From contig WRCE01000003.1 of NCBI GenBank assembly GCA_009784005.1, forward strand, positions 10,519 through 74,518: 64,000 nucleotides of DNA. Direction: 5' to 3'. Source of the DNA: Candidatus Methanimicrococcus labiotermitis. GTDB taxonomy: Archaea; Halobacteriota; Methanosarcinia; Methanosarcinales; Methanosarcinaceae. The translations under genes were made by a program, and so were the position numbers. The notes beneath the pieces are model-generated. The model was not told the origin of the DNA. It did not search any database and saw only the letters and a program-made list of their open reading frames with translations. The stretch's first letter is position 1; every line of letters begins with the position of its first letter. Shown piece after piece: positions 323-63,640 of the stretch.

Positions 323-354
323 AAAACGTACCTCATCATTCAAATTGAAAACAT

Positions 355-478
355 AAATGAAAGCGATAAATGAAAACGATTAATGAAAGCGATAATGGAA
401 GCGATAATGGAAGCGATTAATGAAAACAATAAACAAAAACAATAATGAAAGCGATAATGAAAGCGATAATGAAACAAT
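355..478. repeat. Intergenic minisatellite, ~12-bp unit (AATGAAAGCGAT)
   Basis: About 9 degenerate copies read directly between SepCysS and rpo11. Confidence 0.8.
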
Positions 479-540
479 AAAAAACAACAAAGATACTGCC
501 GGCATTAAAAAAATACCGGCGGACCGGAAAATAAAAAAAA

Positions 541-834
541 TTATTTCGGCCGGTCGGCTTTGTTGAAAGCGTTTGAGAATTCATCACATGCCGCCATGAT
601 TTTGGCGGAGATGTCCTTTAAAATCTCAATCGGCTTCTCACCGGGCATTGTTTTGATGTAGAGAACCGGTTCTCTCTCAACGGAGTTGGAGAGTCTTTTC
701 ACGTCATAGAAAGCGGTTTCCACGCGCGGGTCTTCAAGAAGCGTCGCTTTGATGATATTCATAAGAGTGTGGGTTTCCCCTTTAACGAGAATTTCCATCT
801 CGTCTTTGCCTTGCGAAAGAATTGTAATTTCCAT
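541..834 (-). CDS. rpo11: DNA-directed RNA polymerase subunit L (Rpo11)
   Basis: MEITILSQGKDEMEILVKGETHTLMNIIKATLLEDPRVETAFYDVK...PVLYIKT matches the RpoL pattern (ExxxExHTLxNxL...). It is adjacent to csl4, as is usual in archaea. I prefer the ATG at 834 over the GTG at 846. Confidence 0.85.
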   Translation of the reverse strand: MEITILSQGKDEMEILVKGETHTLMNIIKATLLEDPRVETAFYDVKRLSNSVEREPVLYIKTMPGEKPIEILKDISAKIMAACDEFSNAFNKADRPK

Positions 835-929
835 AATTAATCTCACTTAAAACTGAATCAATAAAATCTGTTAATGTGGTTTCTGAAACAAATAATTTCT
901 GATTGATACTTGCAAAAAACGGAAAAGGG

Positions 930-2234
930 TTAAGGCATCGGAGCAATGCCTTTTCCGTATCCGTCAGCCAATTTGCGGCGCTCGCGGCTGCCGCAGTTGC
1001 CGCAAACCAAAACATCGCCGTCTCTTGTCAGTGATGTTTTGCATTTGGAACAATAAGCTTTTAAAACGCCGAGGCTGCTGTCAACAGTGGACAAGCCGAT
1101 TTTGCTGCTGTCAATCACTTTGGCGCGGACAATGTCACCGACGGAGAACTCATCGGCAACGGACTTGGCAAAACCGTCTTTGATGTTGGAAACATAAATT
1201 TCGGCATTGCCCTTGTTAACGATTTCTTCGTCCAAACTTTTTTCCGCCGCGACCAAGTCGACGCGGGCGTTGGATTCGCGAACGTCGGTAATCGAGACAA
1301 TGACAACATCGCCTTCAGTGATGGTGTTTAATGTCTTAGTCTTTGGAATAATTGCAATCATGCGGTGTTCGCTGTTGATGCCGACAACGCCCATAACGGT
1401 TGAGCGGATTGTGCCGTCATCGTTAACGGTCCCAAAACCGGGTTTGTATTCTTCGATTGTGCCGACGGCTTCGCCCGGAAAAACGAAGCGTTTCGTTTTC
1501 TCAAAAACAATTTTTTCGGGGCGCTTCTTCTTCTCGCCGGGTTTGCGGCCGCCTCTGCGGTCTCCGCCGCGGTCTCCGCGGTCGCCTCTGCCGCCGTTTC
1601 TGTCACGGTCGCCTCTGCCGCCGCGGTCGTCTCTGCCGCCGCGGTCGCCTCGGCCGCCGAATTCGCCTCTTCCGCCGCGTTCGCCACGGCCGCCGAATTC
1701 GCTTCTGCCGCTGCGTTCGCCGCCGCGTTCGCCGCTTCGTTCGCCTCTGCTGACGAATTCGCCTCTGCCGCTTTGTTCGTCTCTGACGGGGCGTTCACTT
1801 CTGACGACTTGTTCATCTCTGGCGGGGCGCTCGCTTCTGACAGGGCGTTCATCTCTGACGACTTGTTCGTCTCTGACGGGGCGCTCACTTCTGACGGGAC
1901 GTTCGCCTCTGCCGCTGTCGCCGTTTTGGCTTTCGGCCGGGCGGGCGTTTCCGGCAGGGGGCCTTCTTTCGCCGCGGGGTTCACCGCGGGGTTCGTCGCC
2001 GGCATCCTCTTCCTTATTTTCACTCACGCGGTTGACTCGCTTAACCGGTTTTTTCGCTGCCTCTTCTTTGGGAGCGATTTCGGGTTTGGGACGGCGCGGA
2101 ATTCTTGATTTTTGAGGAGCTTCGGGTACGGTTTCAACCGTTTCGGGCATTTCCTTAATTTCCTTAGGTTCGTCGGTTTTAGATGACACTTCTTTCAGTC
2201 TTCTTCGGATCGGTTTCTTTTGAACTCTGCTCAT
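930..2234 (-). CDS. csl4: Exosome RNA-binding subunit Csl4 with a ~245-aa arginine/glycine/glutamate-rich repetitive N-terminal extension
   Basis: The C-terminal ~185 aa (FVFPGEAVGTIEEYKPGFGT...IVRAKVID...CSKCKTSL...LVCGNCGSRERRKL) correspond to the Csl4 N-domain, S1 domain and zinc ribbon. The N-terminus holds RGG/RGD and RSERPVRDEQVV repeats. There is no internal Met upstream of the Csl4 core. Confidence 0.8.
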   Translation of the reverse strand: MSRVQKKPIRRRLKEVSSKTDEPKEIKEMPETVETVPEAPQKSRIPRRPKPEIAPKEEAAKKPVKRVNRVSENKEEDAGDEPRGEPRGERRPPAGNARPAESQNGDSGRGERPVRSERPVRDEQVVRDERPVRSERPARDEQVVRSERPVRDEQSGRGEFVSRGERSGERGGERSGRSEFGGRGERGGRGEFGGRGDRGGRDDRGGRGDRDRNGGRGDRGDRGGDRRGGRKPGEKKKRPEKIVFEKTKRFVFPGEAVGTIEEYKPGFGTVNDDGTIRSTVMGVVGINSEHRMIAIIPKTKTLNTITEGDVVIVSITDVRESNARVDLVAAEKSLDEEIVNKGNAEIYVSNIKDGFAKSVADEFSVGDIVRAKVIDSSKIGLSTVDSSLGVLKAYCSKCKTSLTRDGDVLVCGNCGSRERRKLADGYGKGIAPMP

Positions 2235-2535
2235 AAATGAACCTTCGTGATTTGATAATTGTGAATTTGATAATTGTAAAAGCGCCGACCCGATATTCTT
2301 TTGCTGAAAGCGGCGGGCTTAAATTTGAATTAATTTGAATTAATTTGTATGAATTTGTATGAATTTGTATTCGATTCTGAATAGACATATGTGTTAATTG
2401 TTAATTCACTCGGTCAATGAATAGACATTTAACATAGATAAAATAATGTGTGCTTTTGCGTCTTTCTGCGCTTTTTCTGTGCTTTTTCTGCACTTTTTCT
2501 TCGCTTTTTCCGCGTCTTTTTCCATGTCTTCCCAG

Positions 2536-61402: not shown

Positions 61403-61662
61403 TGTTCACCTCTATAAAAACAACTTGAGAAGCCTCTATAAAAAATAACTTGAAGAGAGTCGCTCATCATTTTTAACCTATTGGAAGGAATAACAATATT
61501 TAAAATTAATGAGAGTGAGAGAACAAACCGCCAAGACAAATGACAAATAAAAACGACGGCGGAAAAGGTCCGCCGATAAATAAAAGAAAAAGAAAACAAT
61601 TGCAGTAAACCGAATTGTTTTGAAATTATTTTTGAGTTGTTGTGAAGTTGTTGAAAATTCAA

Positions 61663-61757
61663 GATTGTTCAGAATGTTCTGATTGTTCAGAATGTTCTGA
61701 TTGTTCAGAATGTTCTGATTGTTCAGAATGTTCTGATTATTCAGAATATTCAGAAAA
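61663..61757. repeat. Intergenic minisatellite, 18-bp unit (GATTGTTCAGAATGTTCT), about 5 copies
   Basis: Read directly between korD and the acyl-CoA synthetase gene. Confidence 0.88.
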
Positions 61758-61771
61758 CTGCAGCGGCTTAA

Positions 61772-63490
61772 TTATTTTTTGGGAGCGCCGGCGTCTTCTT
61801 CGCGGATTTCAACACGGCGGATTTTGCCGCTGATTGTTTTGGGAAGCTCAGTCACGAATTCGATGTGGCGCGGATATTTGTAAGGCGCCGTGATGTTTTT
61901 GACGTGGTCCTGAAGTTCCTCTTTGAGTTTATCGGAAGCTTTTTCTTTGTAATCCTTCGTCAAAACGATTGTCGCCTTCACCGCTTGACCGCGGACAGGG
62001 TCGGGAACGCCGGTGATTGCGCATTCTAAAACGGCGGGGTGCTGAATCAGCGCGCTTTCGACTTCGAAGGGACCGATTTTGTAGCCTGAACTTTTGATGA
62101 TGTCGTCGGTTCTGCCCACGAACCAGTAGTAACCATCTTCGTCACACCAAGCGGTGTCGCCCGTGTGATAAAATCCGTCATACCAAACATCGTCCGTCTT
62201 TTTCTCGTCGTATTTGTAACAGGAGAAGAAGCCGGGCGGCAGCGCCGAGATGTTTTTGGAACCGGGGCCTTCGGCGACGCGAATAACGATTTCACCCTCT
62301 TCGCCGACGTCGCATTTTTTGCCGTCGGGGCCGAGAATCATGATGTCATAACACGGAACGGGCTTGCCCATTGAGCCGGGTTTTGGTGTCATCCACGGCA
62401 GAGTCGCGATACACACGATTAATTCCGTTTGGCCGTAGCCTTCCATGAGCTGCATGCCGGTGAATGATTTGAATTTTTCAAAGACTTCGGGATTGAGCGG
62501 CTCGCCGGCAACGACGCAGTACTGAAGCGTGCTGAAGTCGTATTGGGATAAGTCTTCTTTGATGAAGAAACGGTAAGTTGTCGGCGGCGCGCAAAATGTC
62601 GTTACGCCGTACCGAGAGATTTTGTTCATCATGTTGCCCGCGTCAAACTTCGCGAAATCGTAAATGAAAACGGCCGCGCCGCAAATCCATTGACCGTAGA
62701 TTTTGCCCCAGACGCATTTCGCCCAGCCGCTGTCCGCCATTGTGTAGTGAAGGCCGTCATCGGTGACGTTTTGCCAATAGGCGGCTGTTAAGATGTGGCC
62801 GAGCGGATAGGTGAAGTTGTGGCAGACCATTTTCGGAAAACCGGTGGTGCCGGATGAGAAGTAATAGAGCATATCATCTGTGTTGATGACCGCTTGGTCG
62901 CCGGTCGGCCGGACAAAGTCGGCGGAGGACGCTTCGAGTTCCGCGACAAAGTCAAGCCAGCCTTCTGCGCCTTTTGAGTTGCCGCCGACATTGAATTTCA
63001 GGAAGTTAGGTTTGTTCAGCTGGCGAAGCGCTTCTTCAAAGCTCAAATCGAGTTCGCCTTCTGAAATGCCGACAACGGCAACCGCGCCCGACTTTTCAAG
63101 GCGGTAAGCGATGTCGCGGACTTTGAGCATATGCGTTGCGGGAACGGCAATCGCGCCGAGTTTGTGAAGCGCGGGAAGACAAACCCAAAACAAGTAATGG
63201 CTTTTCAATGTCAAAATGACGGGGGAGCCTTTTTTGATGCCGTGTTTTTTGAACAGGTTGGCCGCTTTGTCGGTTTGTGTTTTTAATTGTTTGAATGTGT
63301 AAGTTTGTTCGTTGTCAAAGTCATCACACCAAACGAACGCGATTTTATCGGGGTCTTCTTCGGCGTAGCGGTCAATCACATCAAAAGCAAAATTAAAATT
63401 ATCCGGAACATCGATTCGGAAATTGTCTTTAAACTCTTCATAAGATGTAAATTCTGTTTTTGGAACAAAGTGACGGATCAGGTTACTCAT
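61772..63490 (-). CDS. AMP-forming acyl-CoA synthetase (medium-chain/ACSM-like)
   Basis: AMP-binding signature [13 protein letters not shown], plus the GYGQTE and ...TGD...DEDGY.W..GR.DD motifs. Confidence 0.9.
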
Positions 63491-63532
63491 AAATCTCTCT
63501 CGTAAATTCGTAAATGGTATTTCAGGTATAAT

Positions 63533-63640
63533 CGTGAATCATAAAGCGTGAATCATAAAGCGTGAATCATTATAGTGTGAATCATAAAGCGTGAATCATA
63601 AAGCGTGAATCATAAAGCGTGAATCGTGAATCGTAAATCG
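63533..63640. repeat. Intergenic minisatellite, 14-bp unit (GTGAATCATAAAGC), about 7 copies
   Basis: Read directly upstream of the acyl-CoA synthetase gene. Confidence 0.88.

Follow-up and report, generated by a model that had tools for sequence, protein, structure and literature searches.

Private tandem minisatellites occupy most intergenic spacers in a 64-kb chromosomal region of Candidatus Methanimicrococcus labiotermitis

The DNA analysed here, referred to throughout as the window, is a stretch of 64,000 nucleotides (nt) of the archaeon Candidatus Methanimicrococcus labiotermitis (assembly GCA_009784005.1, contig WRCE01000003.1, positions 10,519 to 74,518 of the forward strand) in which most spacers between genes contain a tandem repeat array. 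Methanimicrococcus species are hydrogen-dependent, methyl-reducing methanogens of arthropod guts and belong to the family Methanosarcinaceae. The window encodes O-phosphoseryl-tRNA synthetase (SepRS), TyrRS, the anaerobic ribonucleotide reductase NrdD, PurB, RecJ, RadB, RpoL and Sec61beta and is syntenic with Methanimicrococcus chromosomes. In a scan that covered one genome per species, its SepRS is 87-91% identical to those of Methanimicrococcus species, 78-79% to those of Methanolapillus and 65-67% to those of Methanosarcina and Methanolobus and, as the order of the genes flanking SepRS is also that of Methanimicrococcus chromosomes, the window is ordinary chromosomal DNA. A gene map, curated from the calls on near-identical public contigs, Pfam and NCBIfam matches and an orthologue alignment that fixed the start of Taw1, assigns 74.6% of the window to coding sequence. 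The only DNA-metabolism genes present are those for RecJ/GAN, RadB and NrdD, and scans of the window for tRNA genes and against Rfam identified no gene.

Tandem Repeats Finder (TRF), with calls merged into non-overlapping arrays of period ≥6 nt and score ≥50, identified 48 arrays that total 5,967 bp, 9.3% of the window. Shuffling within 200-bp blocks, which keeps the local composition, gave a mean of 0.43 arrays and a maximum of 3; the pervasive private minisatellites of the window are real and far above chance. They account for 29.9% of the intergenic but 2.4% of the coding bases. Spacers of ≥70 bp number 38, of which 30 contain at least one array and 23 a strong array (score ≥80), consistent with a preliminary description, made from the sequence alone, that counted at least 25 repeat-bearing spacers. 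All twelve example coordinates given there coincide, within a few bases, with a TRF array, although the region 40333-40592 resolves into two related arrays. The range of 11-36-bp units in 3 to 12 copies was drawn too narrowly, as the units span 6-35 nt, with one further array of a 233-nt unit, and the number of copies reaches ~24 (22166-22505). That the arrays lie mostly upstream of or between transcription units is borne out for tandem (24 of 28) and divergent spacers (4 of 5), but two of the five convergent (3′-3′) spacers also have arrays, and six further arrays are located within genes. The units are, as described, unrelated between loci. All-against-all comparison of 41 consensus units (820 pairs) gave relatedness above the shuffled null in only two pairs, the adjacent arrays 40335-40454 and 40495-40590 of one spacer, and two arrays within a dispersed element of ~460 bp.

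The long arrays have a run of perfect units at the centre and units that are increasingly decayed toward both ends. In four cases (3203-3264, 12918-13070, 20873-21043 and 34669-34859) the unit contains the terminal codons and the stop codon of the upstream gene, as exemplified by 12918-13070, the unit of which is a copy of the gene end ATC GTT TAA, and by 34669-34859, the unit of which contains the TTC TGA that ends a 224-amino acid (aa) gene. Similarly, the array upstream of cobW repeats a segment with AAGAGG that resembles one before the cobW start codon. Arrays that include a stop codon are not significantly enriched (3-4 of 46 genes versus 3.9% at random positions), and such units indicate that each was derived from whatever sequence stood at that spot. 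The positions of arrays relative to start and stop codons vary freely; six approach a start codon to within 33 nt, and four reach over a stop codon or come to within 1 nt of one. No strand bias relative to the direction of transcription was detected, as among genes of one orientation some arrays are rich in A and others in T, without any regularity. The periods of 132 intergenic arrays, from the window and eleven related loci, are smoothly distributed with a mode of 12-14 nt and reveal no preference for multiples of 3, for the 10.5-nt helical repeat or for the 30-nt repeat expected of histones. Folding of ten arrays identified no common RNA structure, with z-scores from -4.3 to +3.5 and some arrays without any structure. 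Several arrays are >85% purine on one strand, and the one at 5017-5111 has the potential to form a G-quadruplex on the + strand. Small open reading frames (ORFs) that cross the arrays and the 460-bp element have no Pfam match, their frames differ between copies, and they were rejected as genes and treated as non-coding.

All six genic arrays in the window have a period divisible by three and are in frame. When the window is pooled with the eleven related loci, 78% of the genic arrays have periods that are multiples of three versus 39% of the 132 intergenic arrays, the latter not different from one third (p = 0.12). The gene for the exosome cap protein Csl4 (930-2234, - strand) has an extension rich in RGG/RGE and SERPVR repeats, with the ECR1_N domain recognizable only from residue 250, and the extension is probably coding. 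The N-terminal repeat tail of Taw1 has no counterpart in six orthologues. Trm5 orthologues were sought in the RadB loci of relatives, as a guide to whether the (VPS)n linker is lineage-specific, but none is present there. From their predicted sequences, the genic inserts appear to be low-complexity stretches at tolerant protein tails and linkers.

The tandem repeat (TR) content of related species was measured over 20 kb around SepRS, and the values are therefore local rather than genome-wide. TRs occupy 10.2% of this locus in Methanimicrococcus hacksteinii, 8.0% in M. hongohii, 7-8% in two metagenome-assembled genomes (MAGs) and 9.4% in Ca. Methanofrustulum. The share is 2-4% in Methanolapillus, 1-5% in Methanosarcina, 2% in M. 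blatticola and M. stummii and ≤1% in three other Methanimicrococcus MAGs. Most Methanolobus and Methanococcoides have ~0-0.5%, with a few at 1.6-3% by virtue of a single long array. The density in the window, by TRF, is ~2-9 times that of the sampled Methanosarcina loci. Perfect tandem duplications of 8-40 nt number 7.7 per 10 kb in the window, versus ~0.3 in shuffled sequence; the window also has 11 isolated perfect duplications of 8-12 nt. The corresponding values are 6.9 in array-rich congeners, 6.3 in Methanofrustulum-like loci, 3.2 in Methanolapillus, 2.1 in Methanosarcina, 1.3 in array-poor congeners, 0.56 in Methanolobus and 0.37 in Methanococcoides. Array birth, as well as array growth, is raised in the array-rich lineages. 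In a second region, around RadB and retrieved from metagenomes, there are 4.7 arrays per 10 kb in Methanimicrococcus-like sequences, 0.19 in other Methanosarcinaceae and 0.97 in distant archaea. With the same density in isolate genomes and the same pattern at this second region, the repeats extend beyond the window. Across the clade the trait is widespread though patchy, and it follows phylogeny. Across 19 Methanosarcinaceae genomes, local TR content is inversely related to published coding density (Spearman rho = -0.76, p = 2e-4, uncorrected for phylogeny).

At six orthologous spacers, arrays are present or absent depending on the species and their units are unrelated. Array-free versions of the SPP-SepRS spacer are 97-103 bp, and those upstream of Taw1 51-105 bp. 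Alignments reveal that the arrays are inserted between conserved blocks, namely a hairpin, an AT-rich box and a GAGG ribosome-binding site (RBS), and they roughly double the length of three orthologous spacers relative to array-poor congeners. The array between RadB and IF2B (27190-27285) is absent from two related loci (L079 and L084), and an unrelated array is present at that spot in a third (L086). In L008, the nearest species available, the 33-nt SPP-SepRS unit of the window occurs as two diverged copies, so this array is older than the species split. Just past the SPP stop codon, array-poor relatives (L001-L002) have a conserved hairpin, GGGAATCTTTATTATTCTGAAATGAATTAAGATTCC, that is lost or replaced by an array in the window (20772-21005) and in L008.

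Further assemblies of the same DNA, or of close strains, were available as MEGAHIT contigs (L069-L071) from ENA sample ERZ27257304, Logan contigs (L074 and L077) from run SRR10512951 and a JGI contig (L073, 3300041017) from a different sample. In a search for more strains of the species, look-ups with exact proteins led to this single MEGAHIT sample, the two Logan contigs and the JGI contig, and a scan of metagenomes returned only other species, with RadB identities of at most 90%. Every array of the window is also present in the MEGAHIT contigs. Over 58.9 kb of alignment with these contigs there are four mismatches, three at 11121-11135 and one at 38873, all within ~25 nt of a contig end bounded by a repeat, and two short end gaps where the alignments stop at a dispersed repeat. 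The nine internal indels are all located inside arrays. Seven are exact multiples of the unit; the other two, one of 17 nt and one of 11 nt (the only indel not listed in Table 1), correspond to the locally prevailing units of arrays with nominal periods of 16 and 12 nt, respectively. Indels affect the arrays whose perfect cores are longest (median 63 bp versus 14 bp, p = 1e-5). The perfect 83-bp core at 15011-15093 is, however, unchanged in the MEGAHIT contigs, which argues against a blanket collapse. The Logan contigs match the window at 100% identity across 1-974 and 32054-33671, with five arrays included, and at the one site of the nine that they cover they have the version of the window. 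The JGI contig has 5 differences from the window in 1,727 positions (~0.3%) of the Prx gene and flanking sequence, but its version of the 12-nt array at 33259-33389 is rearranged, with blocks of +48 and -22 nt and different unit variants. Between strains, this array is polymorphic in copy number or structure while its flanks are conserved. As the numbers of copies in perfect cores vary with the assembler, they are unreliable in MAGs assembled from short reads, but they are possible strain markers.

Arrays of this kind have been described before. In a survey of 261 prokaryotic genomes, Methanosarcina stood out with up to 89 satellites per Mb, mostly with units of 10-30 nt that are unique, scattered and non-coding and show no sign of transposition, and these were attributed to replication anomalies; the longer units, with lengths that are multiples of 3, are genic (Subirana and Messeguer 2019, BMC Evol Biol, PMC6749651). 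With an approximate re-implementation of the SATFIND criterion used there (at least 4 regularly spaced copies of a decamer, a unit of 10-260 nt and at least 60% of the units of equal length), the window contains 17 satellites, ~266 per Mb when extrapolated from 64 kb. It is thus ~3 times denser than the published prokaryotic record, by a local figure and an approximate criterion. The preliminary description placed the density far above prokaryotic expectation, which holds, although Methanosarcina, reported as the prokaryotic outlier, provides a precedent (PMC6749651). The family and the mostly unique, scattered 10-30-nt units are common to both, but the window is from another genus, in a gut-associated clade with small genomes of ~2 Mb, and the earlier survey did not include analyses by spacer, orthologue or strain (PMC6749651). 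The arrays are of a kind already described for Methanosarcina; they are new for Methanimicrococcus, locally more extreme, and documented here by spacer, orthologue and strain. In the literature searched, no paper connects Methanimicrococcus with tandem repeats, and the only earlier reports of minisatellites, or of tandem repeats of variable number (VNTRs), for Methanosarcina or other archaea are the satellite survey and the study of Borgs.

The Borgs, giant linear extrachromosomal elements of Methanoperedens, have TRs that occupy 0.62% of the genome when only perfect regions of at least 50 nt and at least 3 units are counted, versus ≤0.01% in the Methanoperedens host, and their units are unique, generate amino acid repeats in frame, contain all of the variation and are enriched in A on the coding strand (Schoelmerich et al. 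2023, PLoS Biol, PMC9879509). By the same criterion the window has 8 regions, 603 bp or 0.94%. As in Borgs, there are arrays both between and within ORFs, with near-unique units, perfect cores and units that sometimes start in gene ends. The ORF repeats are again in frame, form low-complexity or disordered stretches and also occur in RNA-binding proteins, and differences between near-identical sequences are confined to the TR regions. Unlike Borgs, the window is chromosomal with housekeeping genes, coding-strand A-enrichment is absent, and many of its arrays are old and decayed rather than uniformly perfect. Eukaryotic minisatellites (VNTRs) have private units of 10-60 nt, a homogeneous core, degenerate flanks and whole-unit changes that are much faster than point substitution. 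The unit size, the private unit at each locus, homogeneous core, degenerate flanks and whole-unit changes are found here too, but in shorter arrays (30-340 bp) and in a prokaryotic chromosome that undergoes no meiosis, and mechanisms based on recombination hotspots and gene conversion are therefore not directly transferable. Like CRISPR loci the arrays are regularly spaced direct repeats in an archaeon, but their units are head-to-tail with no unique spacers and no repeat is shared between loci; there is no CRISPR match in Rfam, and no cas gene among the gene calls or in the Pfam/NCBIfam scans of the window.

The arrays most likely reflect local tandem duplication and slippage at a high rate peculiar to the lineage, filtered by selection, and are a by-product of DNA copying more than a designed signal. 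Short local segments, mostly of 8-35 nt, would be duplicated in tandem by a lineage-specific process that is indifferent to sequence, and the copies would then increase or decrease in number, either by slippage during replication or by unequal exchange between sisters or among multiple copies of the chromosome. The arrays would be private because each is seeded from sequence already present at that spot. Selection would purge arrays that disrupt a gene or an essential signal, and those that survive would be spacer filler, including transcribed 5′-leaders and intercistronic RNA, and in-frame low-complexity inserts in tolerant protein tails and linkers. Arrays would age by point mutation at their edges and be rejuvenated when one variant unit re-expands, with longer spacers and a lower coding density as the net outcome. 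The slippage or repair peculiarity proposed in the preliminary description is supported in its lineage-specific part by the phylogeny, the turnover at orthologous spacers, the local seeding, the core and edge structure and the confinement of differences to arrays. Slippage and duplication by the replication and repair machinery, through flap processing, polymerase slippage or weak mismatch correction, presumably are responsible, and unequal exchange enabled by polyploidy, or relaxed selection in a host-associated, genome-reduced gut symbiont, could contribute. Archaeal PolB and PolD have been reported to slip (as cited in PMC9879509), and the literature and supplements searched contained no MutS/MutL/NucS inventory for Methanimicrococcus. 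Most arrays, presumably, have no function. Several observations weigh against this explanation. The MEGAHIT contig is the shorter one at all nine indels (binomial p = 0.004), so that part or all of the apparent copy-number variation may be assembler collapse. The relationship of TR content to coding density is not significant inside the intestinal clade (rho = -0.40, p = 0.22). Flanking microhomology, the FEN1/rad27-type signature, is not seen in 9 of the 11 isolated two-copy duplications, although this result is uninformative. As the trait is kept across a clade made up of Methanosarcina and the intestinal genera, and at least one array also occurs in a species with a 91% identical SepRS, there may also be a selective benefit.

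Retention of the arrays by selection as regulatory devices, whether as promoter spacers, leader or intercistronic RNAs, platforms for nucleoid proteins (histone, MC1, Alba) or elements that tune expression by copy number, appears unlikely. It would fit the predominance of arrays between transcription units, in tandem and divergent spacers, the six arrays so close to a start codon that they must be transcribed or lie over the RBS, the Shine-Dalgarno (SD)-like AAGAGG in each unit of the cobW array, the diverged array common to sister species and the strong purine/pyrimidine asymmetry or G-richness of many arrays. Unrelated units, however, imply no shared binding factor, the arrays have no shared RNA structure, orthologous housekeeping genes of congeners lack them, and the same process puts in-frame repeats into proteins. 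Promoter spacing, as initially suggested, is unsupported, as the arrays keep no fixed distance to starts or stops and have no consistent position or strand, some of them overlapping stop codons or lying in 3′-3′ spacers. Phasing of histones or the nucleoid is likewise unsupported, as no 10.5-nt or 30-nt preference was detected. Single arrays, for example the cobW leader or the TATA-like 15-mer upstream of NrdD, may nevertheless have been put to regulatory use. A dedicated system, in which a special polymerase, nuclease or recombinase adds repeats at seeds, as speculated for Borgs, but here as a cellular trait of Methanosarcinales, is improbable. The Borg-like unique units, perfect cores, in-frame linker repeats and TR-only differences between near-identical sequences, and the comparable density by the Borg criterion, are all consistent with such a system, as is the sharp contrast among congeners, whose TRs take up between 0% and 10% of the locus, a pattern that would suit a factor carried by some and missing from others. 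The coding-strand A-bias that was taken as a clue to mechanism in Borgs is, however, missing, decayed edges and layered histories are typical of ordinary slippage, which explains the data without extra machinery, and the few DNA-metabolism genes of the window include no candidate. A more speculative version, that a specific factor in some Methanosarcinales cells is switched on or lost between congeners and writes private repeats genome-wide, which selection then co-opts for evolvability, is also unlikely. It would account for the spread of local TR content, 0% to 10%, inside a single genus; if true, the arrays would supply leaders that can be tuned and novel disordered stretches of protein, among them the RGG-like extension of Csl4, and culturable Methanimicrococcus isolates would be a system in which to find the factor.

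In the contingency loci of Neisseria, Haemophilus and Campylobacter, repeats of 1-7 nt shift the reading frame or promoter spacing of surface or restriction-modification genes. The window shares with them copy-number-variable tandem repeats, with differences between near-identical sequences, in a host-associated prokaryote. Phase variation that switches genes by copy number, one of the functions initially suggested, is nonetheless very improbable here. The units, at 8-35 nt, are longer, the genic arrays are all multiples of three and so provide no frameshift switch, and the neighbouring genes have housekeeping functions (aminoacyl-tRNA synthetases, tRNA modification, ribonucleotide reductase, purine synthesis) rather than surface or restriction functions. 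Least credible of all is that the arrays are an assembly artefact, with reads expanded or collapsed. The one-directional loss of units at nine arrays in MEGAHIT contigs of the same strain would be expected of collapse, but these contigs do contain each array and are shorter only at those nine, two Logan contigs from another pipeline reproduce five arrays exactly, and the complete M. hongohii and draft M. hacksteinii isolate genomes are equally dense. An assembler would, moreover, not invent units that are decayed and non-identical.

The satellite-rich archaeal lineage is widened from Methanosarcina to the gut-associated, genome-reduced Methanimicrococcus, Methanolapillus and Methanofrustulum. 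The Methanimicrococcus genome paper is silent on tandem repeats and attributes the low coding density of the clade to pseudogenes (PMC11362671). As ~30% of the non-coding DNA in the window is tandem repeat, the arrays offer an alternative, or an addition, to pseudogenization. Borg-like repeat traits on an ordinary cellular chromosome, in the same order, also bear on whether machinery of the host type makes the Borg repeats. The several-fold local contrast of M. hacksteinii and M. hongohii with M. blatticola and M. stummii is a natural experiment on minisatellite instability in Archaea. The mechanism is probably ordinary slippage, and the contrast in load between isolates, together with the Borg parallel, makes its cause experimentally approachable.

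Table 1. Tandem repeat arrays of the window. The last column lists the nt by which the named MEGAHIT contig is shorter.
Positions	Strand	Unit and copies	Setting and remarks	Shorter in MEGAHIT contig
Intergenic				
356-490		12 nt x9.6 (50-nt higher-order)	between RpoL stop and next start; same in Logan contig L077	
2322-2371		10 nt x5	upstream of Csl4	
2463-2522		11 nt x5.4	TRF	
3203-3264		13 nt x4.8	81% of the 77-bp Dph2-methyltransferase spacer; Dph2 stop motif 3x downstream	
4311-4386		33 nt x2.2, purine-rich	PRTase stop to Dph2 start	
5017-5111		~12 nt x7.9, G-rich, no C, GGGAAGGGAAGTGGG...	divergent PRTase/HATPase spacer	
9391-9546		15 nt x10.4	108 nt upstream of NrdD; homogeneous core, decayed edges; TATA-like 15-mer	60 (4 x 15), L070
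12918-13070		12 nt x12.6	upstream gene at 13061-14233	
14264-14351		9 nt x9.8	TRF	
15011-15116		12 nt x8.8, 96% matches	expanded internal minisatellite of 460-bp dispersed element	
15203-15272		31 nt x2.1	TRF	
20873-21043		26 nt x2.5 and 33 nt x3.2	SPP-SepRS spacer; 33-nt unit from SPP 3′ end and stop	
22166-22505		14 nt x24	seven perfect central units, decayed units either side	70 (5 x 14), L069
23513-23566		10 nt x5.5	1 nt past Trm5 stop	
25039-25077		8 nt x4.9	TRF	
25452-25516		23 nt x2.9	TRF	
27190-27285		15 nt x6.4, 98% matches	RadB-IF2B spacer	60 (4 x 15), L069
28070-28147		13 nt x6	TRF	
28535-28685		20 nt x5-6	12 nt past RecJ stop	20, L069
30282-30346		17 nt x3.3	divergent RecJ/PurB spacer	
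31948-32123		16/32 nt x10/4.4	downstream of PurB; part 32054-32123 same in L074	
32367-32427		18 nt x3.2	7 nt upstream of Prx start	
33259-33389		12 nt x11	convergent spacer; rearranged in L073	
34669-34859		18 nt x10	unit holds last codons and TGA of 224-aa gene (34843-35517)	
35609-35807		31 nt x6	divergent spacer	
40335-40590		19 nt x4.2 and 24 nt x4	adjacent related arrays with common core	24, L071
44859-45053		16/17 nt x11, purine-rich	ends 12-21 nt before cobW start; SD-like AAGAGG in units	17, L071
47597-47664		22 nt x3.1, 97% matches	32 nt past MATE stop	22, L071
61662-61755		9/18 nt x10/5	16 nt past acyl-CoA synthetase stop	
63533-63639		14 nt x6.6	TRF	
Genic, in frame				
1564-1911	-	18/54 nt	RGG/RGE-rich 245-aa N-terminal extension of Csl4, probably coding	
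12621-12813	-	12 nt x~16, (R/C)DS(T/A) repeats	Taw1 N-terminal tail	
21432-21492	-	21 nt x2.2-2.9	SPP gene	
24276-24367	-	9/18 nt, (VPS)x10	linker between Trm5 domains	36 (2 x 18; 12 aa), L069
45785-45873	+	18 nt x5, (QEGQGR)n	CobW linker	
55451-55728	-	126-nt duplication	885-aa HATPase gene; sole array in GC-poor island	
Other				
33490-34672		~233 nt, five tandem copies, with 35-nt sub-array at 34405-34516	class distinct from short-unit arrays	
16374-16400, 18527-18558, 19053-19088, 24812-24840, 38430-38475, 39038-39075, 42058-42086		two copies each	weak proto-arrays	

The region from 49.1 to 58.6 kb has a GC content of 0.33-0.38 versus 0.45 and contains, at 49.8-58.5 kb, two opposed operons, each headed by a gene for a cytosine-5 DNA methylase. 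An HATPase_c protein of 885 aa is also encoded, as are several proteins for which no Pfam match is recorded, and the region probably represents an acquired island with a role in restriction or defence. None of the four spacers in and around this island has an array versus 30 of 34 elsewhere (Fisher p = 0.0009), in agreement with the earlier remark that accessory islands largely lack repeats, and as expected if arrays build up in resident DNA.

The non-coding ~460-bp element occurs as tandem pairs at 10638-11597, 14576-15217 and 38253-39008 (86-92% identity). Its features are blocks of strong conservation, a long hairpin (CCGTTCATTCCGATTCCG...CGGAATTCGTAATGAACGG) and an internal, variable minisatellite of a hexamer or 12-mer. 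No consistent ORF, no Pfam or Rfam match and no counterpart in the SepRS loci of relatives was found for this element. One MEGAHIT contig of the same strain, k141_1639260, joins the 38.2-kb side to the 10.6-kb side and so differs from the window by a 27-kb inversion (11.1-38.2 kb) between inverted copies of the element, with the junctions inside the repeats at about 10650-11100 and 38253-38715. The order in the window, with Taw1 beside NrdD, agrees with that in relatives, and k141_1639260 therefore represents either a real inversion polymorphism or a misjoin.

The copies of the ~233-nt unit fill part of a 1.7-kb convergent spacer between Prx and the 224-aa gene. Each contains a CA/A-rich tract and four conserved hairpins, one with a T-run after its GC-rich stem. 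Compensatory changes are present in only 2 of the 47 predicted pairs, and searches of Rfam with the 233-nt and 460-nt repeat regions returned only sub-threshold matches at chance level. The copies could be tandem small-RNA genes or terminator modules.

A pair of genes on the + strand at 16643-18525, encoding TcmP (three-Cys-motif partner, GMT-wHTH) and a DUF5131 protein, is located between PRC and TyrRS. In two relatives (L007 and L008) the PRC-TyrRS spacer is only ~300-340 bp, and the pair therefore looks like a small mobile or phage-derived insertion.

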